A stretch of DNA of 64,000 nucleotides from Candidatus Gorgyraea atricola (lineage in GTDB: Bacteria > Omnitrophota > Gorgyraeia > Gorgyraeales > Gorgyraeaceae), in contig JAVCCW010000018.1 in assembly GCA_030765235.1 (NCBI GenBank), forward strand, positions 25,465-89,464, read 5' to 3'. Below, one piece after another: positions 6,305 through 63,320 of the stretch. The translations under genes were made by a program, and so were the position numbers. The notes under the pieces are model-generated. The model was not told where the DNA came from, did not search any database, and was given only the letters and a program-made list of their open reading frames with translations. Each line of letters opens with the position of its first letter. Within the stretch, counting starts at the first letter, position 1.

Positions 6305-6333
6305 ATAGATTCCCGCTTTCGCGGGAATGACAA

Positions 6334-7425
6334 TTACAGCAGGCTCTTGATGGAATTTAGTATAACTGACTTAGGTATGTTTTCCTTTACCACAGTCTTT
6401 CCTATATTTACAGGAAGTACGAATCTATTTTTTCCGTGGATGAATTTTTTATCATGTTCCTGCGCCTTAAATATAGCTTTTATATCCAGGCCCTTTAGGG
6501 TAACTGGCAAGCCTATCTTTTTTATCAGGTTCTTTATCCGCAGAAAGCTTCCCTCATCCAATAGCCCCAATTCCCTAGCTATATGCGACGCGGCAATAGT
6601 GCCAAGCGCTATTGCCTGGCCATGGCTATATGATTTACCATAATGCGCGGCTGTTTCAATAGCATGGCCTATTGTGTGGCCGAGATTGAGTATTACGCGT
6701 ATGCCTTTATTATCATGTTCGTCCTTTTCCACCACGCGAGCCTTTATTAAACTACACGTGTAGATTATGTATTCCAGTGACTTTTTGTCACGACCCAATA
6801 CCTTTTTGTAATTTTTTTCAAGAAAACTGAATAGCTGCGGTGATTTGATGATACCATATTTAACGACCTCTCCTAATCCGGATATCAGATCTTTTTTAGG
6901 TAGAGTCTTTAATAAAGCTGCGTCACTAAAAACAAGTCGCGGCTGGTAAAACGCACCTGCAAGATTCTTGCCTACGCTTAGATCTATGGCTACCTTGCCC
7001 CCTATTGCAGAATCTACTTGAGCAAGGAGCGTTGTCGGGACCTGAATGTAAGGAATGCCGCGCCTATAAATACTCGCGACAAAACCTGCCAGGTCTCCTA
7101 TCACGCCACCGCCTAAAGCAACAATAAACATCCTGCGACTGGAGCCATCGAATTTAGAAAGCCTGTTAAGGAGACTGATACAATATTTCTCTGATTTGGA
7201 TTTTTCGCTGTCTGGCACAACCGAGAATCTGACGTTAAAACCAGATAAAGAAAGAGATGCTTGTATCTTTTTACCTAAAAGCCTTTTTATAACAGGATTG
7301 GTAATTATTACAGCATCAGTGCCGATCTTTAATCTCTTCAGGTGTTTGCCAAGATCAGCGATTTCATTGCGAGAAACCTTTATGTCATAGCTTCTTTTAC
7401 CGAGATTTACGCGTATTTTTTTCAT
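6334..7425 (-). CDS. aroB: 3-dehydroquinate synthase
   Basis: GGGVIGDLAGFVA...VPTTLLAQVDSAIGGK. Confidence 0.93.
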   Translation of the reverse strand: MKKIRVNLGKRSYDIKVSRNEIADLGKHLKRLKIGTDAVIITNPVIKRLLGKKIQASLSLSGFNVRFSVVPDSEKSKSEKYCISLLNRLSKFDGSSRRMFIVALGGGVIGDLAGFVASIYRRGIPYIQVPTTLLAQVDSAIGGKVAIDLSVGKNLAGAFYQPRLVFSDAALLKTLPKKDLISGLGEVVKYGIIKSPQLFSFLEKNYKKVLGRDKKSLEYIIYTCSLIKARVVEKDEHDNKGIRVILNLGHTIGHAIETAAHYGKSYSHGQAIALGTIAASHIARELGLLDEGSFLRIKNLIKKIGLPVTLKGLDIKAIFKAQEHDKKFIHGKNRFVLPVNIGKTVVKENIPKSVILNSIKSLL

Positions 7426-8039
7426 GTCTCCACACCCAATAATCGGGCCAGGAACATAACAATAGGCCAGATCACCCCACCTATTATGCCCAGCCAGAGC
7501 ATTCCGAATATAATCATGAATCCATACGGTTCGAGCTTTGCGTATTTAATAGCCATATCTCTTGGCAAAAGCCCCATGGCAACCCTGGAACCATCCAGCG
7601 GAGGTATGGGTAATAGATTAAATACCGCAAGTACCAGATTTATAAGTATGACAGAGTTTAGGATCGATATAAATAAAGGGCTTCCTGCCAGAGTCAAATT
7701 CGAGATCTTTAGTATAAAAGATAGGACGATCGCAAACAGCATATTTGCCGCGGGTCCTGCCAGACCTACCCATACCATGTCTTTTTTAGGGTTGTTTAAT
7801 CTATGGAAATCAACAGGAACTGGTTTTGCCCAGCCAAACACAATAGGCGCATGAGTTGCTAGAAGTACTAGAGGAAGAAAAATCGTGCCTATGGGGTCTA
7901 TGTGGGCCACAGGATTGAGCGTGAGCCTGCCTGCATTCTTTGCAGTAGAATCGCCTAATTTCCATGCGACCCAGCCATGCGCGTACTCGTGGATTATTAC
8001 AGCAAGAAAGAATATCGAGAGTGTTATTAAAAATCTCAT
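7422..8039 (-). CDS. Site-2 protease family (peptidase M50) zinc metalloprotease
   Basis: HEYAHG HExxH motif, LLPIPPLDG, several TM helices. Confidence 0.85.
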   Translation of the reverse strand: MRFLITLSIFFLAVIIHEYAHGWVAWKLGDSTAKNAGRLTLNPVAHIDPIGTIFLPLVLLATHAPIVFGWAKPVPVDFHRLNNPKKDMVWVGLAGPAANMLFAIVLSFILKISNLTLAGSPLFISILNSVILINLVLAVFNLLPIPPLDGSRVAMGLLPRDMAIKYAKLEPYGFMIIFGMLWLGIIGGVIWPIVMFLARLLGVET

Positions 8040-8737
8040 TGGCTCTGCGTTGAGAATGTCAGGTTGCCTTTTGGCTCAGGCGCCTTACGCTCTAGTATAA
8101 TACCTTTAGAGAAAGTTCCCTTTATCCCTCGACTGCGTCCTTCGACGCGCTTCTCTTGCTCAGGACGACCCTGAGTTTGTCGAATGGGTCGCTCGGGACT
8201 CGCTTCTTTTTTTACCTCTCCTACCTCAGGTTTTACTAGTTCCAGATTGAACATGACTTGACTGGCATGTATCCAGCCTGTTGTTTTCTCAGGCGGCTTT
8301 ACCTCATACCAATCATCCTTTTCCGATACGATCTGAAGTTCCTGCGGCTTCGAGGCCTGGCCGAGTATGGAATACTTTGTTCCAGGGCCTGCCCTGAGAT
8401 TTACGCGCGTGGCATTAACTTCGCCCTTCGACAAGCTCAGGACTTCGCCCACTCCTTTTTTATCGATGATATCCACATAATCATTTTTGATATAAAGATG
8501 CGCTGTTTCTGGCAGCACGACCTTGAACCAACTATAACGCTTATCAATGATCTTAACAGGGTCACCCTTTTTTAATTTACCCAGGATCTCATAATTCACA
8601 TTATCCCCTGCCCTTACATTGGCCCCATCGCTCTTTGCAAAGCCTATCTTAGACAATGCCTCTTCCTCAAGCGAGAAAGAAACCCCACATGCAAACAATA
8701 CAACGCAAAATGTTACAGCAAGTATCTTCATAGCCAC
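8036..8737 (-). CDS. secreted protein with two SH3b-like domains
   Basis: Signal peptide; repeated ANVRAGPxxxYxILGxL...GDxV blocks. Confidence 0.6.
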   Translation of the reverse strand: MAMKILAVTFCVVLFACGVSFSLEEEALSKIGFAKSDGANVRAGDNVNYEILGKLKKGDPVKIIDKRYSWFKVVLPETAHLYIKNDYVDIIDKKGVGEVLSLSKGEVNATRVNLRAGPGTKYSILGQASKPQELQIVSEKDDWYEVKPPEKTTGWIHASQVMFNLELVKPEVGEVKKEASPERPIRQTQGRPEQEKRVEGRSRGIKGTFSKGIILERKAPEPKGNLTFSTQSQ

Positions 8738-8742
8738 TCCTT

Positions 8743-9039
8743 TTATTTTTTGTCTTTCTTGTCTTCTTTCTTTCCTTTTGCCTCGGGTTCTTTCTTGGCG
8801 CCTGCGCCTGGTGCTGGAACTGCGCCTTCAGCAGCTACCTGGCCTTCCTCGGGCTTTTCTTCCGCCTTTTCCTTCTTTATCTTGGTCCTTACTATCTTTA
8901 GTTTAGGTAAACCAAAGATAGAGTCCTCATCTTTTATGATGCCTTTTTCTTTTAGCGCAAAGAACTTTTCGAACCTCTTTAAGACTGTCCTGTGTCTTTT
9001 CCCTGCCTTAGAAGTCTTTAAACTTGGATGCTGTGACAT
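8743..9039 (-). CDS. small basic protein (resembles a PVC-restricted small basic protein family); Lys/Glu-rich tail
   Basis: MSQHPSLKTSKAGKRHRTVLKRFEKF...; start taken at the internal Met. Confidence 0.55.
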   Translation of the reverse strand: MSQHPSLKTSKAGKRHRTVLKRFEKFFALKEKGIIKDEDSIFGLPKLKIVRTKIKKEKAEEKPEEGQVAAEGAVPAPGAGAKKEPEAKGKKEDKKDKK

Positions 9040-9611
9040 TATTCCCCCTTTTTGACATAACAATCTTTGTATGTCTCTTTTAGCTTCTTTTCCAGTTGCT
9101 CCGCGTGTTTTTTCTCACTGAAACCGCCTATGTAAAGCTGATAATAATCTCCTGATTTCTTAATATCAGCCTTGTACCCTTGTATTCGCAGTTTTTCTCG
9201 TCCCTGCTCCGCAGCGCCCCTCGCCTTAAAAGCCGCCAACTGAAGAATATATTTATCTTCTACCTGAGGCTTAGGGCTAGGCGTCTTTTGACTGATAGCT
9301 GATAGCTGAGAGCTGAGGGCTATCTTTCTTGTCCCTTGTCCCTTGCCTGCCCCGTACGAAATCTTTGATTTTCGTATGGGGTCTCTTGTCCCTGCCGTAT
9401 CTCGCCTTCCCTTCTCAACTCCCAACGAGAAACATATTATGCATGCCATCGCAAGTCCTATCGCGACAAATATCACATGCTCATAAGAAAGTGTCAGGCT
9501 TTTTTTTAAATTAGGCAGCAGGATCTTTGTCTTTTTCCTTATCTTCCTGTCAGATATCTGCGACTGGCCAAATAAGTCCCTCTCTTGCCTATCTTGAGAT
9601 CTCGCGCTCAT
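9039..9611 (-). CDS. SPOR domain membrane protein (cell-division associated)
   Basis: TM helix then C-terminal YILQLAAFKARGAAEQ...YYQLYIGGF SPOR-like motif. It contains an in-frame heptamer repeat segment. Confidence 0.7.
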   Translation of the reverse strand: MSARSQDRQERDLFGQSQISDRKIRKKTKILLPNLKKSLTLSYEHVIFVAIGLAMACIICFSLGVEKGRRDTAGTRDPIRKSKISYGAGKGQGTRKIALSSQLSAISQKTPSPKPQVEDKYILQLAAFKARGAAEQGREKLRIQGYKADIKKSGDYYQLYIGGFSEKKHAEQLEKKLKETYKDCYVKKGE

Positions 9612-12933: not shown

Positions 12934-13055
12934 GATGTTACGAAGGTTACGGAAGGTTTCGGAATGTTACGTAAGGTTGCATTAAAAGCCTTGAAATCCA
13001 TAGCTTTTGTAACCTTCCGCAACCTTCTCTAACATTCCGTAACATTATGTAACCT
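12934..13055. repeat. Hairpin repeat family E (GTTACG-based imperfect tandem units forming a long inverted repeat)
   Basis: gttacgaaggttacggaaggtttcggaatgttacgtaaggttgc ... gtaaccttccgcaaccttctctaacattccgtaacattatgtaacc. Confidence 0.65.
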
Positions 13056-13566: not shown

Positions 13567-13648
13567 AAATCCCAAATCCAAAACCGTGTTTGGGATTTGG
13601 AAATTGGGATTTATTTGGGATTTGGTAGTATTGGGATTTGGGATTTTT
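13567..13648. repeat. Hairpin repeat family A copy 1 (GGGATTT/AAATCCC degenerate heptamer arrays around a CATGTTTGGGATT-like centre)
   Basis: aaatcccaaatcc...gtgtttgggatttggaaattgggatttatttgggatttggtagtattgggatttgggattttt. Confidence 0.75.
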
Positions 13649-13660
13649 CATGTGTGTCAG

Positions 13661-15672: not shown

Positions 15673-15746
15673 TGGAGCGGGTAAGGGGAATCGAACCCCT
15701 GCTGCGAGCTTGGGAAGCTCGTGTTCTACCATTGAACTACACCCGC
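15673..15746 (-). tRNA. tRNA-Gly (anticodon CCC)
   Basis: Reverse complement GCGGGTGTAGTTCAATGGTAGAACACGAGCTTCCCAAGCTCGCAGCAGGGGTTCGATTCCCCTTACCCGCTCCA: 7-bp acceptor stem, anticodon loop TTCCCAA, GGTTCGATTCC T-arm, encoded CCA. Confidence 0.9.
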
Positions 15747-19440: not shown

Positions 19441-19450
19441 CAAACCTCCT

Positions 19451-19490
19451 AAAGTAGACAAAACAGACAGTGTCTGTTTTGTCTACTTTA
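19451..19490. repeat. Palindrome family F copy 2
   Basis: aaagtagacaaaacagacagtgtctgttttgtctacttta. Confidence 0.85.
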
Positions 19491-20519
19491 GCCAAAGAAG
19501 ATCTTGGCGATGTTGTATAGTTCCATGTCAACAGTCTTTAGCTTGGCTACAGCAGCTTCTAATGAAACGCCCTTTACCTGGTTGCCTTGTAATGCAGCCA
19601 TCTTGCCATAATCCTTTTTTAGCACCAGCTCCATTGCTTTTATGCCGAAACGTGTGCCAAGCACTCTGTCAAAGGCAGTGGGCGTACCACCCCTTTGTAA
19701 GTGGCCAAGCACTGTGACTCTTGTTTCAAAACCTGTATTTTTCTCTATTGCTTCACCTAATGCATGGCCTATGCCGCCCAGGCGTATATGGCCAAACGCA
19801 TCTAACTTTTCCTCTTGCTTGACAAGTTTACCCTGCTTAAACTTCGCGCCTTCTGCCACTACAACAATGCTGAAGCTCTTGCCCCTAGCGTGGCGCTTCT
19901 TTAAAAGAGCGCATACCTCATCCATATCTATTGGAAGCTCTGGTATCAAAATAATATCAGCGCCTCCTGCTAATCCAGACTCTACAGCAATCCAGCCTGC
20001 GTGCCTGCCCATTACCTCGACTACCATGATCCTGTTATGTGACTCGGCTGTAGTGTGCAGCCTGTCAATGGCCTCAGTGGCAATATTTATTGCAGTATCA
20101 AACCCAAACGTTACATCTGTGCCTGAAAGATCATTGTCAATGGTCTTTGGCGCGCCAACTACACTCAGCCCTTCTTTGTGTAACTTTGATGCTACGCCAA
20201 GCGTATCCTCGCCGCCAATGACTATTAGCGCCTCCAGCCCCATTTTTTTAAAATTCGCTTTTACCTTTTCTACATCCCCTTGTTTTTTATAAGGATTTGT
20301 CCTTGAGGTGCCAAGTATTGTGCCGCCTTTTGGCAATATCCCAGAAACAGACTTAAGGTCTAATTTTTCAGTATTGTTTTCTACTAATCCTTTCCATCCA
20401 TTCTTTATACCTATTACTTCATACCCTTCTTTGAGCGCAAGCCTCACAACTGCCCTGATCACTGAATTTAACCCAGGACAATCCCCTCCTCCTGTTAATA
20501 CACCAACCCTCTTTGTCAT
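19488..20519 (-). CDS. pfkA: 6-phosphofructokinase
   Basis: MTKRVGVLTGGGDCPGLN...GGEDTLG...MGRHAGW. Confidence 0.9.
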   Translation of the reverse strand: MTKRVGVLTGGGDCPGLNSVIRAVVRLALKEGYEVIGIKNGWKGLVENNTEKLDLKSVSGILPKGGTILGTSRTNPYKKQGDVEKVKANFKKMGLEALIVIGGEDTLGVASKLHKEGLSVVGAPKTIDNDLSGTDVTFGFDTAINIATEAIDRLHTTAESHNRIMVVEVMGRHAGWIAVESGLAGGADIILIPELPIDMDEVCALLKKRHARGKSFSIVVVAEGAKFKQGKLVKQEEKLDAFGHIRLGGIGHALGEAIEKNTGFETRVTVLGHLQRGGTPTAFDRVLGTRFGIKAMELVLKKDYGKMAALQGNQVKGVSLEAAVAKLKTVDMELYNIAKIFFG

Positions 20520-20540: not shown

Positions 20541-20665
20541 AAATCCCAAATCCCAATAATACCAATACTACCAAATAAATCCCAATTTCAAAATCCCAAA
20601 CATGGTTTTGGATTTGGGATTTTGGATTTATTTGGGATTTGGTAGTATTTGGATTTTGGATTTTT
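20541..20665. repeat. Hairpin repeat family A copy 2 (about 125 bp, long inverted repeat)
   Basis: aaatcccaaatcccaataataccaatactaccaaataaatccc...catggttttggatttgggattttggatttatttgggatttggtagtatttgg. Confidence 0.8.
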
Positions 20666-20693
20666 CCATTGTTTGGTTATTTCGCGTTCCCCA

Positions 20694-22674: not shown

Positions 22675-22752
22675 AAATCCCAATACTACCAATAATACCA
22701 ATACTACCAAATAAATCCAAAATCCCAAATCCCAAAACATGTTTGGGATTTT
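22675..22752. repeat. Hairpin repeat family A copy 3
   Basis: aaatcccaatactaccaataataccaatactaccaaataaatccaaaatcccaaatcccaaaacatgtttgggattttt. Confidence 0.8.
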
Positions 22753-22755
22753 TCA

Positions 22756-23208
22756 TTATGTCGGTTCCACCATGAACAGCGCTTGTCCGTATTCAACTGG
22801 TTCAGCATTTTCTACCAGCACTTCGACTACTTCACCCTTTACCTCTGACTTTATTTCATTCATCAGCTTCATCGCTTCTATAATGCATACTACCTCGCCA
22901 ACAGCCACGACCTTGCCTATTTCCACGTAGGGCTTTGCATCAGGCGAGGACGATCTGTAAAAGGTGCCTACCATGGGTGTCTTTATGGCTGTGAGTTTCC
23001 TGGCTAATTCTTCTTTTGCTGCCGCGCCTTGATCTGGCCTGATAGTCTGCACTGTCCTTGCTGCGCTCGGATCTTCAGTGATCGCCTCAAAGTTTCCGGA
23101 AGGCGATTTCCTAAGTTTTATCCTCGTGCCTTCCCGTTCGATCTCCAGCTCGGAAAGCCCATTCTCATTCATTAAGTTGATCAACTCTTTGATCTCTTTT
23201 AGGTTCAT
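22756..23208 (-). CDS. accB: Biotin carboxyl carrier protein
   Basis: EAMKLMNEI biotinyl-lysine motif. Confidence 0.9.
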   Translation of the reverse strand: MNLKEIKELINLMNENGLSELEIEREGTRIKLRKSPSGNFEAITEDPSAARTVQTIRPDQGAAAKEELARKLTAIKTPMVGTFYRSSSPDAKPYVEIGKVVAVGEVVCIIEAMKLMNEIKSEVKGEVVEVLVENAEPVEYGQALFMVEPT

Positions 23209-24734: not shown

Positions 24735-24795
24735 CCAATGCCCAATTACCAATGACCAATAAATTCCCAATTACCAATTTCCAATTGGTCATTGT
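24735..24795. repeat. Hairpin repeat family D (CCAATTA/TGGTAAT heptamer-like units)
   Basis: ccaatgcccaattaccaatgaccaataaattcccaattaccaatttccaattggtcattg. Confidence 0.7.
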
Positions 24796-26215: not shown

Positions 26216-26232
26216 AATAACTTCCTCTTCCT

Positions 26233-26264
26233 CTTGTAGGCCAGGTTTAAACCTGGCCTACAAG
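26233..26264. repeat. Palindrome family G copy 1 (TGTAGGCCAGGTTTAAACCTGGCCTACA)
   Basis: Perfect palindrome centred on GTTTAAAC. Confidence 0.85.
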
Positions 26265-26270
26265 AGGGGG

Positions 26271-27077
26271 TTACCACAATAGTAATCCCCCGTAGCCCAC
26301 AACAGATGTATAATCGCCAGAGATATCCCCGCTTGTCTGATACTTTACGAGTCCGGCCTTTTCAGCGCCTAGATTTTTACATACGCTTATAAGAGTGCAT
26401 GTCGGCGCAACTCCGCACATCGATATGTTAAGCTCTTTTACGACCTGAAAGAGCCTCTCCTCATCGAGCGCCAGTATGGCATTTATGGCGAGCCTGTCTT
26501 TTTCCTCCGCGCTATCTCTTGATTCATAGTGCGTAAAATCCGTACTCGCTATAAAAATAGCGGATCTCCCTATCTTTTTAAATCCTTCTGCTATTTCCTT
26601 TCCTATCTGCTGATATTGTGCGAGATCCCCCTGAGAGATAGTTATGGGCACTATTTTTATGTCCTTTTTCAGATACTGCAAAAAAGGCACCTCTACTTCT
26701 ATGGAATGCTCATTTAAATGCGAAGCGCTGTCCTCTTTTAGAAGCGTACTTCCTTTTAATATAGACTCTGCGATCTCAGTATCTATCTTTGCCTCTCCCA
26801 AGGGGGTTTCCCATGTACCCTTGGTCATTATAGCAAATGGCTTTCCTGATCCAGTGTGGTTTGTCCCTAATATTATGGCTGTCTTTTTTAGCTCTACCTT
26901 TGATATCACAGCTCCCGCTACAGAACCAGAATAGATATAACCTGCGTGAGGCAGAATGGCACCTTTTATTTCCTGTTTTTCCGCCTCAAGATCTATCATC
27001 CCGGAAAGCATCTTATTTAGAGCTACTGTTGTCTGCGGATAGAACTGACCAGCTACGATAGGTTTTCTTCGCGTCAC
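26271..27077 (-). CDS. AmmeMemoRadiSam system protein B (MEMO1-like)
   Basis: VAGQFYP...AILPHAGYIYSG. Confidence 0.85.
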   Translation of the reverse strand: MTRRKPIVAGQFYPQTTVALNKMLSGMIDLEAEKQEIKGAILPHAGYIYSGSVAGAVISKVELKKTAIILGTNHTGSGKPFAIMTKGTWETPLGEAKIDTEIAESILKGSTLLKEDSASHLNEHSIEVEVPFLQYLKKDIKIVPITISQGDLAQYQQIGKEIAEGFKKIGRSAIFIASTDFTHYESRDSAEEKDRLAINAILALDEERLFQVVKELNISMCGVAPTCTLISVCKNLGAEKAGLVKYQTSGDISGDYTSVVGYGGLLLW

Positions 27078-29980: not shown

Positions 29981-30016
29981 CTTCTGTAGGCCAGGTTTAA
30001 ACCTGGCCTACAGAAG
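29981..30016. repeat. Palindrome family G copy 2
   Basis: ttctgtaggccaggtttaaacctggcctacagaagg. Confidence 0.85.
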
Positions 30017-30026
30017 GAGGATAAGC

Positions 30027-33070: not shown

Positions 33071-33108
33071 TGACCTCGTAGGTCGGATTTAAATCCGACC
33101 TACGAGGT
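33071..33108. repeat. Palindrome (CCTCGTAGGTCGGATTTAAATCCGACCTACGAGG)
   Basis: Perfect palindrome centred on ATTTAAAT; the same theme as family G. Confidence 0.8.
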
Positions 33109-33116
33109 CTAATAAT

Positions 33117-33925: not shown

Positions 33926-34010
33926 TTCTGTGTAATGTGTAAGGTGTAAGGTGTAATGTAACCGGGATAGCTTGGTACATTACACATTAAACATTACACC
34001 TTACACAAGT
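33926..34010. repeat. Hairpin repeat family C (GGTGTAA heptamer units, inverted)
   Basis: tgtgtaatgtgtaaggtgtaaggtgtaatgta...tacattacacattaaacattacaccttacaca. Confidence 0.75.
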
Positions 34011-34947
34011 CCTGTATGATCTTTTTAGTCTCCTCAACCGCCCGAGGATGGTTCATGACAAGGATGTCTGAACCTGCATTGAGATACGCTACAGCAGTGG
34101 CTGTCTCATACAATGCACCCCTGTCTTTGCTAGGTCCCCAGTCTTTCGCAGCCTCGTCGCCAGTCTTTGCCTCTTTAGTACGCCAGACCTCTTGCCCCAC
34201 AAAATTTATGAGAGGCATTGAAAGCATCTTGTCGCCTGATAGACCAGCAAGCCGCGTCCTTTCCATTATTGAATAAGTGTATTCCAGGCCATAGCCCAGC
34301 GCGCCTGTTGCGTGATGAATCACTATTTTATCCTGCGGGAATTGCATATCGCAGATAAGTATGTTCAGCTGCTTTGCAATATTTATGTCAATCGGTGCCT
34401 CAGAAATAATAGCATGACCTCCGCTCAAGCACGCTGCGGTCAGGGTCTTGTAATTTTCCTGTGTCGCAATACCAAAAAGACAGTTTTTGCCTTTTGCAAC
34501 ATCTGTGCAATGTACCATTACGTCGCTATCCTTTTGTGCAGTCCCGCTGCCTATTACAATAAGCGGCACATCCACAGCCTTTAAGATGTTTTCCAGTGTC
34601 TTGCCGGCATCTTGCCCAGAGGCGTTTTTCGTATCCGGGTGCGCGCTTGCAAGGCGAAGACATATCAAATCTGCTGAGAATTTCTCTACACAGAGCTTTG
34701 CCCATGCAACTGGATCCTTTAACGCAGCGCCGAAATTAGCCTTTAAGTCCTCTGGCCACTCAGGCGGCTCCATATCCCACACCTCCATTGCCACCTTAGG
34801 GGAATTCGGACATTTATCCTCACCTTTTATGAAAAATATACCCGTCTCCCCACCAACAGTAACCCTTGTCCCTTGTCCCTTGTCACTTGTCACTCCCAGC
34901 GCAACCTCACTTATTGTGTCCTGCCATTTTTCAATTACCCTGTCCAT
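33994..34947 (-). CDS. acsD: Corrinoid iron-sulfur protein small subunit (AcsD/CdhD)
   Basis: TIM-barrel protein of about 317 aa; N-terminus carries the in-frame heptamer-encoded segment TSDKGQGTRV. Confidence 0.8.
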   Translation of the reverse strand: MDRVIEKWQDTISEVALGVTSDKGQGTRVTVGGETGIFFIKGEDKCPNSPKVAMEVWDMEPPEWPEDLKANFGAALKDPVAWAKLCVEKFSADLICLRLASAHPDTKNASGQDAGKTLENILKAVDVPLIVIGSGTAQKDSDVMVHCTDVAKGKNCLFGIATQENYKTLTAACLSGGHAIISEAPIDINIAKQLNILICDMQFPQDKIVIHHATGALGYGLEYTYSIMERTRLAGLSGDKMLSMPLINFVGQEVWRTKEAKTGDEAAKDWGPSKDRGALYETATAVAYLNAGSDILVMNHPRAVEETKKIIQDLCKV

Positions 34948-35668: not shown

Positions 35669-35800
35669 TGTTGTGTGTTGTGAGGGTGAGTTATGGGTTG
35701 TGGGTCGAGTTGTGGGTTGTGAGTAGTGAGTTAAAACCCACAACTCATCCACACAACCCGACTCACAACTCACAACACACCCCCACCCTCACAACTCACA
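35669..35800. repeat. Hairpin repeat family B copy 1 (GGTTGTG/CACAACC heptamer-like units)
   Basis: ttgtgtgttgtgagggtgagttatgggttgtgggtcgagttgtgggttgtgag...cccacaactcatccacacaacccgactcacaactcacaacacacccccaccctcacaactcaca. Confidence 0.8.
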
Positions 35801-38921: not shown

Positions 38922-38953
38922 GATTCCCGCTTGCGCGGGAATGACATTTCTGG

Positions 38954-39871: not shown

Positions 39872-39920
39872 AGCCGAGGTCCAGCCTCGGCTTTTGAAAA
39901 AGCCGAGGCTGGACCTCGGC
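39872..39920. repeat. Palindrome family H copy 1 (CCGAGGTCCAGCCTCGGCTTTTGAAAAAGCCGAGGCTGGACCTCGG, nested hairpins)
   Basis: Perfect palindrome directly downstream of the lepA stop. Confidence 0.85.
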
Positions 39921-41722: not shown

Positions 41723-41766
41723 CCGAGGTCCAGCCTCGGCTTTTGAAAAAGCCGAGGCTGGACCTC
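41723..41766. repeat. Palindrome family H copy 2
   Basis: ccgaggtccagcctcggcttttgaaaaagccgaggctggacctc. Confidence 0.85.
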
Positions 41767-43171
41767 AAACTTGCGCTGCGATTTTTTTGCCGAATTCCAG
41801 GTAATCCTTGGCCATCTTGTTGCTTGGCGCTTCTGCGTAGATCCTGAGAATAGGCTCTGTTCCAGAAAGTCTCAGCATAAGCCAGCTGTCATCCTCCACG
41901 ATAAATTTGTAACCATCACATGTCTTTGTCTCTTTTACAGGCCTTTCCAGGATTTTTTTGAGAGGCGTGGTTTTTAAGAATTCCATCAGTTTTTTCTTTT
42001 TGTCGTCGGGATAATCCATGATATCTATCCTTGTATAACAAAAACTTCCGTATTCCTTTTCCACATCAGCCAGTATTTCCAGTATGCCTTTTTTCCTGTG
42101 TGCCATCATTTCGATAAGCAATATCCCTAAAAGCATCCCGTCTCTCTCAGGTATGTAACCCTTGACCCCTATTCCTCCTGATTCTTCTCCTCCTATAAGG
42201 ATATCTTCATCGAGCATAAGCCTGCATATATACTTAAAACCCACAGGTGTCTCGTATAGTTTCAGATTATATTTTTTTGCAATGCGTTCTATAAGAGTGG
42301 TGTTGGAAACTGTCTTGACTACTCCGCCGCTCCATTTTTTATCCTCTACAAAATGAAGTAAGAGCAGCGCCATTATCTGGCCGGCATTCATGTATCCGCC
42401 TTTTGGCACAACTGCCGCGATCCTGTCCGCGTCGCCGTCATTTACTATCGCGATATCAAACTTGCCTTTTTTCATTTCCTTAAACACTGCCTCTAAATTT
42501 TTAGGGATAGGTTCAGGGTTTATGCCGCCGAAAAGTGGGTCACGGCCTGTTCTCATCTGAGTGACCTGAATGCCTGTATCTTTCAGGATTTCCTTTATAT
42601 AACCATCCCCGACCCCATGCATGCAGTCTACCAGGACATTGAGCTTTGCTTTCTTCAGGGCCTTCCCATCTATATAAGATTTTACAAATTTCATATAGTC
42701 TGGTTTTAGATCCACCATCTTCACTGCCCCTGAAGCAACAGCCTCTTTTAAAGGTGTGCTTTTTATCTCGTTCTTCCCAAGAAAAGATTCAACAGATTTA
42801 GTTATGCCCTCGTCCGCGGTGCTTGCGTAATGCGCCTTTATTTTTATACCGTTATAAGAAGGTGGGTTGTGGCTGGCGGTGATCATCACTCCACCTGCTA
42901 ATTTTTTATTTTTTATCGCAAGGCTTACAAATGGTGTAGGAACTGCCTTGTCTGAAAGCAACACCTTTATGCCATTAGCTGCGAGCACACATGCGACCAG
43001 CTCAGCATATTTCTCGGACAGAAACCTCCAGTCATAGCCTATGACCATTGTTGCGCCATTACCCTTGAAATGATCTGCGATGGCCTGCGAGACTATCTCT
43101 ACATTCTCAAAAGTAAAATCCTCTGATATTATCGCTCTCCATCCATCGGTGCCAAACTTAATCGCCATCAC
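41765..43171 (-). CDS. Phosphoglucomutase/phosphomannomutase family protein
   Basis: TASHNPPSYNGIKI active-site Ser loop. Confidence 0.88.
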   Translation of the reverse strand: MMAIKFGTDGWRAIISEDFTFENVEIVSQAIADHFKGNGATMVIGYDWRFLSEKYAELVACVLAANGIKVLLSDKAVPTPFVSLAIKNKKLAGGVMITASHNPPSYNGIKIKAHYASTADEGITKSVESFLGKNEIKSTPLKEAVASGAVKMVDLKPDYMKFVKSYIDGKALKKAKLNVLVDCMHGVGDGYIKEILKDTGIQVTQMRTGRDPLFGGINPEPIPKNLEAVFKEMKKGKFDIAIVNDGDADRIAAVVPKGGYMNAGQIMALLLLHFVEDKKWSGGVVKTVSNTTLIERIAKKYNLKLYETPVGFKYICRLMLDEDILIGGEESGGIGVKGYIPERDGMLLGILLIEMMAHRKKGILEILADVEKEYGSFCYTRIDIMDYPDDKKKKLMEFLKTTPLKKILERPVKETKTCDGYKFIVEDDSWLMLRLSGTEPILRIYAEAPSNKMAKDYLEFGKKIAAQV

Positions 43172-43881
43172 TTTCCTCCGTGTAATTTTCTCACTGCCTC
43201 TTTAGCATCTTTTGCTCCAAAGAAATAAGAGCCGGCTACAATCACATTTGCACCAGCGTCTAAAACTAACTTAACATTTTTATCATTTATCCCACCGTCG
43301 ACCTCTATATCTCCAGCATATAGTTTTCGAGCCTGTTTTATTTTTGGTATTACTGAATCAATAAATTTCTGCCCTCCGAACCCAGGATGAACTGACATTA
43401 GAAGAATCATGTCGACTTCACCCAGTACGCCTTCTATGCAGAAGGACGAATCAGGATTAAGCGACAACCCTGCCTTTTTGCCAAGAGACTTTATCTCGCT
43501 CAGGACCTTTTTAACACGCACTTCATCTATCTTATCCACAGACCTCGAAGTCTCCACCCTTGTCGCTTGTTGCTTGTCGCTTGTCCCTAACGTATAAGTC
43601 TCCGCATGCACAGTGATGATATCGCTTCCGGCATCTGCAAATGCCTTCAAAAGCTTATGCGGCTGGTCGATCATGAGATGAACATCTAGAGGCAATTTAG
43701 TACATCTCTTCACTGCCTCTACAATAAGCGGCCCTATAGTAATGTTAGGCACGAAACGCCCGTCCATTACATCAACGTGTATCAAGTCTGCTCCGGCATC
43801 TTCGATCCTTTTTATCTCATCGCTCAGCCTTGCAAAATCAGCCGACAATATGCTCGGCGCTACCAATATCTTTTTCATCAT
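43168..43881 (-). CDS. rpe: Ribulose-phosphate 3-epimerase (with an inserted heptamer-repeat-encoded loop)
   Basis: LVAPSILSADFARL...HVDVMDGRFVPN. The extra segment LGTSDKQQATRVETS is encoded by (CTTGTCN)x4 at 43551-43580. Confidence 0.9.
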   Translation of the reverse strand: MMKKILVAPSILSADFARLSDEIKRIEDAGADLIHVDVMDGRFVPNITIGPLIVEAVKRCTKLPLDVHLMIDQPHKLLKAFADAGSDIITVHAETYTLGTSDKQQATRVETSRSVDKIDEVRVKKVLSEIKSLGKKAGLSLNPDSSFCIEGVLGEVDMILLMSVHPGFGGQKFIDSVIPKIKQARKLYAGDIEVDGGINDKNVKLVLDAGANVIVAGSYFFGAKDAKEAVRKLHGGK

Positions 43882-47391: not shown

Positions 47392-47435
47392 CCCTACATT
47401 TGTAGACCAGGTTTAAACCTGGTCTACAAATGTAG
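47392..47435. repeat. Palindrome family G copy 3 (compensatory variant TGTAGACCAGGTTTAAACCTGGTCTACA)
   Basis: cctacatttgtagaccaggtttaaacctggtctacaaatgtagg. Confidence 0.85.
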
Positions 47436-48605
47436 GCCCTTGCCTTTAATGATATCTATATCCTTGTCGCCTCTACCGGATAGGCAGATGGCTATGATTT
47501 TATTTTTGTTCAGCTTCGGCGCTAGTTTTTTTACTGCATAGTATATGGCATGGCTTGGCTCAAGGGCTGGGATAATGCCTTCTGTCTCAGATAACATTCT
47601 AAAGCCTTCTAAACCTTCTTTATCATTTACAGCCACATACTGGGCGCGGCCAATGTCTTTGTAATACGAATGCTCCGGGCCTACGCCTGGGTAGTCCAGG
47701 CCTGCGGAGATCGAATGCGCGACTTTTACCTGGCCGTCTTTATCCTGTAACAAATAGCTCTTACTTCCATGCAAAACCCCGGGTTTACCTTTACAGAGTG
47801 CTGCACCGTGTTTGCCGCTTGCTAAACCTAAGCCGCCTGCTTCTACGCCGATAAATTTCACCCTTGTCTTAAAAAACGTGTGGAAAAATCCTATGGAATT
47901 GCTTCCTCCGCCAACGCATGCCACCATGTAATCTGGAAGTCGGCCTTCATATTTTAAGATCTGTTTCTTTGTCTCTTTGCCAATAACTGCCTGAAAATCA
48001 CGAACCATTGCAGGATATGGGTGTGGGCCTACTACAGAGCCTATTATATAATGAGTTGTACGAACATTTGTAACCCAGTCTCTTATTGCTTCATTGGTCG
48101 CGTCTTTAAGAGTCTTGCTTCCTGAATAAACAGGTATTACCTTTGTGCCAAGAAGCTTCATTTTTAATACATTCAACGCTTGACGCTCTATGTCCTCTAT
48201 GCCCATATATACTTCGCAAGGAAGCCCAAACATAGCTGCAGCAGTAGCTGTGGCAACACCATGCTGGCCAGCGCCTGTCTCAGCTATAATGCGCGACTTG
48301 CCCATCTTTACAGCCAAAAGCACCTGGCCAAGCGTATTATTTATCTTATGCGCGCCTGTATGCAGCAGATCCTCGCGTTTAAGATAGATTCTTGTGCCTG
48401 TTTTTCTGGACAGGTTCTTGGCAAAATAAAGCGGCGTGGGCCGACCTGCATAGACCTCCAGCAATTCACCTAATTCACGCTTAAACTTAGCATCTTTAAG
48501 AGCCTTTTTATATTCCCTCTCCAGCTCCTCAAGCGCTACCATAAGCGTCTCAGGCACAAACTTCCCACCAAATCCCCTGAATTTACCATTCTTATCAGGT
48601 AGCAT
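47424..48605 (-). CDS. trpB: Tryptophan synthase beta chain
   Basis: [12 protein letters not shown]-lysine motif. Confidence 0.95.
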
Positions 48606-53583: not shown

Positions 53584-53645
53584 GACCTGGCAAGGCTGGA
53601 CCTCGGCTTTTTTAAAAGCCGAGGTCCAGCCTTGCCAGGTCTGCT
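53584..53645. repeat. Palindrome family H copy 3 (variant centre TTTTTTAAAA, longer arms)
   Basis: ctggcaaggctggacctcggcttttttaaaagccgaggtccagccttgccag. Confidence 0.85.
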
Positions 53646-54817: not shown

Positions 54818-54823
54818 AAGATA

Positions 54824-54939
54824 AATCCCAAATTCAAATACTACCAAATCCCAAATAAATCCAAAATCCCAAAGCATGTTTGGGATTTAGAAATTGGGAT
54901 TTATTTGGTAGTATTGGTATTATTGGGATTTGGGATTTT
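54824..54939. repeat. Hairpin repeat family A copy 4
   Basis: aaatcccaaattcaaatactaccaaatcccaaataaatccaaaatcccaaagcatgtttgggatttagaaattgggatttatttggtagtattggtattattgggatttgggatttt. Confidence 0.8.
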
Positions 54940-56296: not shown

Positions 56297-56383
56297 CCGT
56301 TCCAAAATCTCTGATTTTGGAACGGGGCGTAGTTCCGCGTCTAAAGTAGACAAAACAGTCAGTGACTGTTTTGTCTACTTTAG
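56297..56383. repeat. Two adjacent hairpins between acsB and acsC: a CCCCGTTCCAAA hairpin and palindrome family F copy 3
   Basis: gtgccccgttccaaaatctctgattttggaacggggc followed by ctaaagtagacaaaacagtcagtgactgttttgtctactttag. Confidence 0.8.
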
Positions 56384-56406
56384 CTTCCGCGTAAGTTCCG
56401 CGATTC

Positions 56407-63204: not shown

Positions 63205-63320
63205 GGTTGTGAGGGTGAGTTATGTGTTATGAGTCGGGTTGTGGGGGTGGGTTGTGAGGCGCTAACTCACTACCCACAACTCACAACTCGACCCACAACC
63301 CATAACCCACCCACACCCTC
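63205..63320. repeat. Hairpin repeat family B copy 2
   Basis: ggttgtgagggtgagttatgtgttatgagtcgggttgtgggggtgggttgtgagg...cccacaactcacaactcgacccacaacccataacccacccacaccctc. Confidence 0.8.

Follow-up and report, generated by a model that had tools for sequence, protein, structure and literature searches.

The stretch of DNA analysed here, hereafter the window, comprises 64,000 nucleotides of contig JAVCCW010000018.1 from Candidatus Gorgyraea atricola (Omnitrophota), has a G+C content of 43%, and carries nearly all of its genes on the minus strand. Three of these genes, which encode unrelated proteins, contain a short tandem array of the same 7-nt unit, NGACAAG on the coding strand, in about four units each: the gene of a SPOR-domain protein of 190 aa (9039..9611), acsD (CdhD), which encodes the small subunit of the corrinoid iron-sulfur protein (317 aa, 33994..34947), and rpe, which encodes ribulose-phosphate 3-epimerase (an open reading frame (ORF) of 237 aa, 43168..43881), all on the minus strand. 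Their identities are backed by the Pfam families SPOR PF05036 (residues 120-187), CdhD PF03599 and Ribul_P_3_epim PF00834, and further by homologues for AcsD and by solved structures for Rpe; all three ORFs are full length when compared with homologues and PDB chains. The Rpe of the window is identical to a GenBank protein from a metagenome-assembled genome (MAG) of Candidatus Gorgyraea atricola, and for each of the three proteins all close homologues belong to Omnitrophota MAGs or metagenomes. Both rpe and acsD are core metabolism genes inside conserved operons, and the SPOR gene encodes a cell-envelope protein.

In rpe, the array reads GGGACAAG CGACAAG CAACAAG CGACAAG followed by GGT (43557..43587, minus strand) and encodes TSDKQQATRV, residues 100-109, and in acsD it reads GTGACAAG TGACAAG GGACAAG GGACAAG, again followed by GGT (34863..34893, minus strand), which encodes TSDKGQGTRV at residues 20-29. 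The array in the SPOR gene is split, with GGCAAG GGACAAG GGACAAG as its right part (9328..9349, minus strand, encoding GKGQGTR; (CTTGTCC)2.6 plus one degenerate unit when read on the plus strand) and GGGACAAG AGAC as its left remnant (9381..9396, minus strand, encoding GTRD). The original prediction, made from the letters of the sequence, had placed heptamer arrays in these three genes: all three are present within a few bases of where it put them, the translations it quoted are correct, and its central point, that one 7-nt unit recurs in frame in three unrelated genes, is borne out by Tandem Repeats Finder (TRF), by direct reading and by the ORFs. The tracts are 2.6-4.4 units long with 90-100% matches according to TRF. 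Searching the window for CTTGTCNCTTGTC with at most one mismatch returned 8 matches, all within the three loci and all on the plus strand, against 0.34 expected, and none of 100 shuffles reached 8. No intergenic NGACAAG array was found within the window, and no inverted partner array lies near the three arrays, which are direct and about 30 nt long. The GACAAG-GGT 3' end is common to acsD of the window and of a sister species (L008, ~90% identity), to rpe of the window, the sister species and a third species (L005, 81% identity), and to the SPOR gene of the latter.

How far the likeness of the encoded peptides can be taken as evidence depends on the arithmetic of the unit. Three copies of any 7-nt unit make 21 nt and encode a single cyclic heptapeptide that is the same in all three frames, which in the case of the NGACAAG array is the cyclic G-Q-G-T-R-D-K. 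The peptide likeness among the three proteins arises because of this rule: similar peptide inserts, as predicted, are present, but they do not count as independent evidence, since the shared DNA unit dictates the heptapeptide. A sense-strand unit without T also makes stop codons impossible, together with all residues that have U at codon position 2 (F, L, I, M, and V), and because neither stops nor hydrophobic residues arise, the array can survive in any frame within a loop. The T found in the acsD array of the window is confined to those N positions at which no TGA results, a placement that is consistent with frame-constrained spread.

The SPOR gene has accumulated the most complex arrangement, with residues 74-107 of the linker holding three in-frame repeat elements and the translation running across them as ...GAGKGQGTRKIALSSQLSAIS.... 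This linker lies between a membrane helix and the SPOR domain and is hypervariable, with no conserved sequence among 22 homologues. The NGACAAG array of the window is split by a near-perfect 32-nt palindrome, CCCCGTACGAAATC TTTG ATTTTCGTATGGGG (9350..9381, minus strand), which lies in frame inside the array and has a GGCAGG(G)ACAAG-like direct repeat on either side, and then comes a (CTATCAG)~4 array (CTGATAG on the plus strand; 9292..9324, minus strand) that encodes LSSQLSAIS, with the reading frame intact throughout. For the (CTATCAG) array, TRF gives 3.6-4.3 copies and 91-94% matches; it is weaker in the 14-mer test (2 matches against 0.58 expected, with 11 of 100 shuffles reaching 2), and DNA comparison places it in the window species only, since it is absent from both the sister and the 81% species. 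The palindrome is likewise absent from the sister species, and a search of the window and of 261 loci gave no other copy, a contig of the same species excepted. The SPOR array reads GAGACAAG AGACAAG AGACAAG AAACAAG in the sister species and GGACAAG AGACAAG TGACAAG GGT in the 81% species.

Further repeat-related observations were made around this gene. In a 913-nt contig (L259; ENA contig k141_227891, P0246), the 5' half of a PyrK-like gene is fused with the 3' half of the SPOR gene exactly at a (TCAGCTN)n array, so that either the assembly is chimeric at the repeat or the same array is also present in a second gene. The neighbouring SH3-domain gene (8036-8737, minus strand) carries three window-specific in-frame inserts (8417-8440, 8167-8188, and 8134-8154), which were found by an indel census against the sister species; two of them represent a single element in opposite orientations (CTGAGCTTGTCGAAGGG / CCCATTCGACAAACTCAGGG) and encode LSLSKGE and PIRQTQG. 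At 8746-8774, (GACAAGAAA)~3 encodes a lysine-rich C-terminal tail of the ORF at 8743-9063 and shares the GACAAG core at a period of 9.

Solved Rpe structures cover residues 1-94 and 124-233 of the window Rpe, which leaves ~22 extra residues. An AlphaFold2 model of the protein (mean predicted local distance difference test (pLDDT) score of 87; template modelling (TM) scores of 0.8-0.9 against Rpe crystal structures, which are TIM barrels) places residues 96-119 as a coil between beta4 and alpha4, with a pLDDT below 50 for residues 100-110. The statement that Rpe normally has no such loop is correct for the front of this segment, where the stretch from HAEAY to a KGxSKxxDKID block is hypervariable and repeat-derived, but not for the block itself, which is conserved in all Omnitrophota Rpe. 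Close orthologues free of the array (P0006) are 229 aa long compared with 236 aa, and are thus exactly 7 residues (3 units) shorter; the rpe array is a lineage-specific addition of this length. The corresponding arrays read GAGACAAG AGACAAG AGACAAG GGACAAG GGT in the sister species and four perfect GGACAAG units followed by GGT in the third species. A target-site duplication was considered for rpe and rejected: in the window GGAGACTT stands on both sides of the array, and these flanks were taken as chance because relatives carry GGGACTT or GGGAGTT on one side only.

In a set of 120 Rpe sequences from Omnitrophota, the array site also accommodates other peptides with a 7-residue periodicity (such as SENRKQRTENRKG and EDRRQKSEVRRQRSEDRRG), and in other Omnitrophota it holds the palindrome-encoded YVGAGLKPAPR, for which the DNA of one locus (L529, 3001-3726, P0041) reads TAGGGGCGGGTTTGAAACCTGCCCCTA and has the same architecture as the D3 family of intergenic palindromes in the window (see below). 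In-frame palindromes of this type are also present in P0035, P0082, P0085, P0098, P0107, and P0111. Because many different repeat-derived peptides occupy the site in these 120 proteins, the loop between beta4 and alpha4 of Rpe is a recurrent insertion hotspot across Omnitrophota. As a separate observation, a further motif (PSTSLGAG / RSLGEGG / LRLCSGQA) occurs in variable loops of P0140 (AcsD), P0251 (SPOR), and both P0028 and P0061 (Rpe), which suggests another dispersed repeat inserted in frame in other Omnitrophota.

In the AlphaFold2 model of AcsD, the array forms the loop tip of a beta-hairpin, between predicted strands at residues 14-17 and 29-32, with residues 18-28 making up the loop. 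The idea that arrays sit in loops tolerated by the fold agrees with all three proteins, namely a disordered coil in Rpe and a hairpin loop in AcsD, both on models, and a hypervariable linker in the SPOR protein. The sister species has GGGACAAG AGACAAG AGACAAG AGACAAG GGT in acsD, and a heptamer array coding for this loop was found in the window and sister species only. At the peptide level the picture is different: most AcsD orthologues down to 58% identity carry GATK(D/E)xGGTRxxxIKIGGE at the array site, and Moorella thermoacetica (4DJD_D) has GATKDQGGTR, whereas Carboxydothermus (2H9A_B) has a short TGDK and the loop is missing in many Omnitrophota, including P0122 at 88% identity. With T-K-D-x-G-G-T-R found in orthologues and in Moorella, the claim that the AcsD insert is a new peptide has to be given up, and lineage specificity stands for the heptameric DNA but not for the peptide it encodes. 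Because the loop peptide is found in distant orthologues, yet many Omnitrophota are without it, it is both ancestral and dispensable. One AcsD orthologue (L013) keeps the ancestral loop, and its DNA is non-periodic. On comparison of the sequences, the resemblance between the array peptide T-S/R-D-K-G-Q-G-T-R and the ancestral T-K-D-K-G-G-T-R cannot be coincidence. I infer that either DNA that was already similar was converted by an existing array or the loop was homogenised in situ; replacement by conversion of already similar DNA is most likely, and AcsD is favoured as the recipient because its array does not extend to relatives as distant as those that share the Rpe array.

Assembly artefacts do not account for the arrays: a second sample yielded a contig (L258) with 99.96% identity over 2503 nt, the SPOR arrays and palindrome included, and in the sister species three or four independent assemblies agree with one another in their arrays. 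Array sites are retained in species at ~90% and 81% protein identity, and copy number is constant between assemblies and species (four units in three species). The seventh base behaves differently from the rest of the unit: N differs between species in 3-4 of 4 units, compared with 0-1 of the 24 positions in the GACAAG core, at a gene-wide nucleotide divergence of 12-20% and a synonymous third-position divergence of 23-34%. Within rpe arrays N is homogeneous, being C,C,C in the window, A,A,A in the sister species, and G,G,G,G in the third species, and the AGACAAG variant is present in all three genes of the sister species. Judged by these patterns the arrays seem to evolve in concert, and this concerted change may reflect conversion within an array, conversion between loci, or selection on the core. 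At ~30 nt, the arrays are close to the minimal length for RecA pairing. CsrA-type GGA motifs were also considered and were dropped because of AGACAAG in the sister species.

The remainder of the window is rich in repeats. Period 7 accounts for 20 of the 58 TRF rows and at least six unit families, and the intergenic period-7 arrays occur in inverted pairs, each of which folds into a long hairpin. One such hairpin, with inverted GTTGTGA / ACTCACA arrays, lies at 35670..35800 (copy at 63206-63315) and is missing in the sister species, whose genes on either side overlap; another, with inverted TGTGTAA / ACATTAC arrays, lies at the 3' end of acsD (33929..34007) and is also absent from the sister species; a third, with inverted AAATCCC / TTTGGGA-type arrays, lies at 20541..20666 and has copies at 13567-13649, 22675-22760, and 54823-54939. 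Further junction hairpins absent from the sister species are located at 24735-24786 and, with a period of 10, at 12937-13053. Because they are absent from the sister species, in which the flanking genes overlap or abut, the junction hairpins are recent insertions or deletions exactly at gene junctions. The period-7 hairpins belong to dispersed families (D1, D2, D6, and D10) with copies that are 67-90% identical over 40-83 nt, 35677-35716 and 63206-63245 being matching copies of one such family, and they are multi-copy families and not independent local expansions. Perfect palindromes resembling repetitive extragenic palindromic (REP) elements occupy intergenic positions in four further families: D3 (26235-26273, 29985-30023, 33077-33115, and 47401-47439), D4 (2464-2507, 19449-19492, and 56341-56384), D5 (39874-39917, 41723-41766, and 53590-53633), and D17 (6308-6335 and 38922-38949). 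The sister species lacks the D4 copy at 2460-2511 as well as the D3 copy at 26227-26272. It carries an intergenic (AAACCCT)~7.6 array (L001, 20817-20866) whose unit is a rotation of the plant-type telomere unit, a likeness that is probably coincidental. Rfam returned no RNA family at the arrays, and its sole match in the window is a tRNA gene at 15676-15746 (minus strand).

Outside this lineage, (GACAAGN)3-4 arrays were found in genomes and metagenomes of many phyla, and many of those among the matches listed lie in frame in conserved enzymes; the perfect cores of these matches are imposed by the search pattern. An NGACAAG array occupies an identical site of GatA in two Saccharibacteria genomes (L029 and L117) and an identical site of LigA in two metagenome contigs (L179 and L191), and such arrays at shared enzyme sites in other candidate phyla span 3-5 units. 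LysA of another Omnitrophota bacterium (L037) has one in-frame NGACAAG array, AroA (L194) has two, and other enzymes with in-frame GACAAGN arrays among the matches listed are HisS, AsnB, PNPase, ValS, TrmD, Fmt, and GlyRS. GACAAG as a globally special unit was considered and dropped, composition-matched heptamers being as frequent in viral contigs, and because control heptamers are about equally frequent no claim is made here that the unit is special outside the Gorgyraea lineage. My conclusion is that heptamer arrays in frame with coding sequence form a general class that has been little noticed. A literature search found nothing on heptanucleotide repeats in Omnitrophota, and searching by the repeat sequence gave primer lists only.

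Two known systems are particularly close. Rickettsia palindromic elements (RPEs) are in-frame insertions that occur in metabolic genes with no relation to one another, at sites that the protein fold accommodates (Ogata et al., 2000, via PMC10969869). The arrays resemble RPEs in being a dispersed family that lies in frame in unrelated housekeeping or metabolic genes, encodes a conserved peptide in surface loops, and is kept in relatives: three unrelated genes within 64 kb carry the arrays in frame, at sites that are fold-compatible on predicted structures. Genomes with RPEs have copies between genes as well, and here the intergenic repeats belong to other families, which differ between the sister species. 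RPEs are palindromic and ~100-150 bp long, whereas the NGACAAG arrays are ~30 nt tandem repeats of a 7-nt unit with no dyad symmetry, only the 32-nt insert at 9350-9381 being palindromic at the SPOR locus, and the host of RPEs is an obligate intracellular alphaproteobacterium, whereas the arrays occur in a free-living or epibiotic Omnitrophota bacterium. The palindromic in-frame inserts found here (9350-9381, and L529 in the Rpe loop) are closer to RPEs than the arrays are.

The short tandemly repeated repetitive (STRR) heptanucleotides of cyanobacteria, which Mazel and colleagues are said to have described in 1990, reportedly occur mainly between genes in heterocystous cyanobacteria, with CCCCAGT, TTGGTCA, and CAACAGT as units. 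Tandem 7-nt arrays with several units per genome, dispersed over it, are found here too; host and canonical units are different, as this is a member of Omnitrophota with other units, three arrays are predicted to be translated, and the intergenic arrays, unlike STRRs, are inverted pairs forming long hairpins. Elhai and colleagues reportedly described, in 2008, cyanobacterial small dispersed repeats of 20-30 nt that lie inside genes and other repeats, which by description are similar to the SPOR palindrome inside its array, but these are not tandem heptamers. The closest functional analogue is thus the RPEs and the closest structural analogue the STRRs.

Taken together, the arrays are probably best explained as one family of dispersed heptamer arrays, similar to both RPEs and STRRs, that became fixed in frame in tolerant loops and linkers. 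The (NGACAAG)~4-GGT arrays would belong to the rich load of dispersed repeats of this lineage, and given their hydrophilic and flexible product, an insertion would survive wherever a surface loop can lengthen by a multiple of three bases. The net effects are a gain of 7 residues in Rpe, an array within a disordered linker in the SPOR protein, and the replacement of an ancestral loop by nearly the same peptide in AcsD. After fixation, four units would have been kept without phase variation, and concerted change would probably proceed via short-patch gene conversion or pairing out of register, inside single arrays and perhaps also from one array to another. This explanation is backed by other in-frame elements, namely the SPOR palindrome, the SH3-gene inserts, and the Rpe-loop palindrome elsewhere. 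Several points weigh against it. No terminal inverted repeats, clear target-site duplications or associated enzyme were found at the arrays, and the 8-nt direct repeat around the rpe array of the window is not conserved in relatives. In viral contigs, GACAAG has 60 matches against 34, 53, and >120 for composition-matched heptamers, and the signal of a shared unit could partly stem from selection for T-free, loop-compatible units. The ancestral AcsD loop could have been the source of the unit by in-situ slippage, and not its recipient. Moreover, the copy number of NGACAAG is a count within 64 kb of the genome, and translation of the arrays would follow from the intact ORFs.

Among the alternatives, independent in-situ birth of each array as a microsatellite by slippage, with the shared unit due to convergent selection for a T-free, frame-open unit, is unlikely. 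It draws on the ancestral T-K-D-K-G-G-T-R of AcsD, which could be encoded by ACAAAGGACAAGGGAGGAACAAGG and would then differ from a perfect array by two substitutions and one codon, on arrays of many other heptamers being about as common elsewhere, and on the other 7-residue-periodic peptides in the Rpe loop of other lineages. What it does not readily accommodate is the same unit in three unrelated genes, at about four units each and with the same GGT continuation in two or three cases, where some 300 rotation classes of T-free heptamers would make chance agreement at three loci improbable; moreover, the AGACAAG variant occurs at all three loci of the sister species, and the ancestral AcsD loop of L013 is encoded by non-heptameric DNA. 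The near-invariance of the core (0-1 of 24 positions) although its bases span all codon positions, next to a spacer that changes in 3-4 of 4 units, would instead fit a nucleic-acid cis element, in which GACAAG, recurring at 7-nt intervals, serves DNA or mRNA as a signal for binding or processing and the peptide is a by-product, as would the persistence of arrays at orthologous sites through 10-20% protein divergence. I consider this quite improbable, given that there are ~8 synonymous core sites per array (a small sample, P ~0.09 for a single pair), that concerted evolution alone can hold repeats homogeneous, and that the array was lost or replaced in the close relatives P0006 and P0122 with no obvious consequence; no partner protein or RNA was identified, Rfam had no match at the arrays, an inverted partner array is missing nearby, and a large collection shows no enrichment of the unit over controls.

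Two further readings have very little in their favour. That the segments are old functional protein loops whose DNA periodicity is incidental is very improbable: T-K-D-x-G-G-T-R in AcsD down to 58% identity and in Moorella 4DJD_D, and the conserved KGxSKxxDKID insert of Omnitrophota Rpe, speak for it, but 90-100% periodic matches over 28-31 nt are unexpected in ordinary coding sequence, many Rpe orthologues lack the array part of the loop or have unrelated repeats in its place, sequence conservation is missing from the SPOR linker, and the AcsD loop DNA of L013 is non-periodic. The ancestral reading was therefore rejected for Rpe and SPOR, and holds for the AcsD peptide only. The original prediction had also raised the possibility of contingency loci, in which heptamer copy number would switch SPOR, AcsD, and Rpe on or off by frameshift, and this is extremely improbable. 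In its favour, 7 is not divisible by three and one unit gained or lost shifts the frame, and the acsD tract lies near the 5' end (codons 20-29). Phase-variable simple sequence repeats have an established length threshold above which tracts become hypermutable. The tracts found here are short (2.6-4.4 units) and imperfect, and the repeat-number variation between strains or assemblies that was looked for did not appear, the arrays being identical in the second sample and in the three or four sister assemblies, and copy number being the same in three species. Both rpe and acsD are core metabolic genes of conserved operons, in which a one-unit change would break the frame. Compared with the phase-variable repeats of Haemophilus and Neisseria, the intragenic non-triplet unit is thus alike, and a hypermutable tract, copy-number polymorphism and a dispensable gene are what is missing.

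Returning to dispersed arrays fixed in tolerant loops, an extended version of this explanation is that (NGACAAG)4-GGT is a discrete element maintained at the nucleotide level, either a gene-converting or mobile mini-element or a cis-acting signal of DNA or RNA in which a 6-nt core is fixed and the spacer is free, and that Omnitrophota and the candidate phyla radiation (CPR) may routinely reshape loops of essential enzymes by capturing intergenic repeats in frame. This is a tentative idea with a small chance of being correct, for which the beta4-alpha4 loop of Rpe, the GatA site in two Saccharibacteria genomes, and the LigA site in two metagenome contigs may be examples of such capture at hotspots.

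If arrays of this kind were indeed fixed in frame, they would represent a second and mechanistically different case beside Rickettsia, in which selfish or slippage-derived tandem 7-mers, and not palindromes, become part of essential proteins. Their harmlessness would follow from a simple rule, namely that a 7-nt unit lacking T yields one and the same hydrophilic heptapeptide whichever frame is read. For the annotation and phylogenomics of Omnitrophota and CPR, such arrays are a warning, as the loops they encode make unrelated proteins look similar, add noise to alignments, and give rise to chimeric contigs. Finally, the combination of a frozen core with a spacer that changes in concert may offer a small, tractable system for the evolution of repeats under the constraint of a reading frame.

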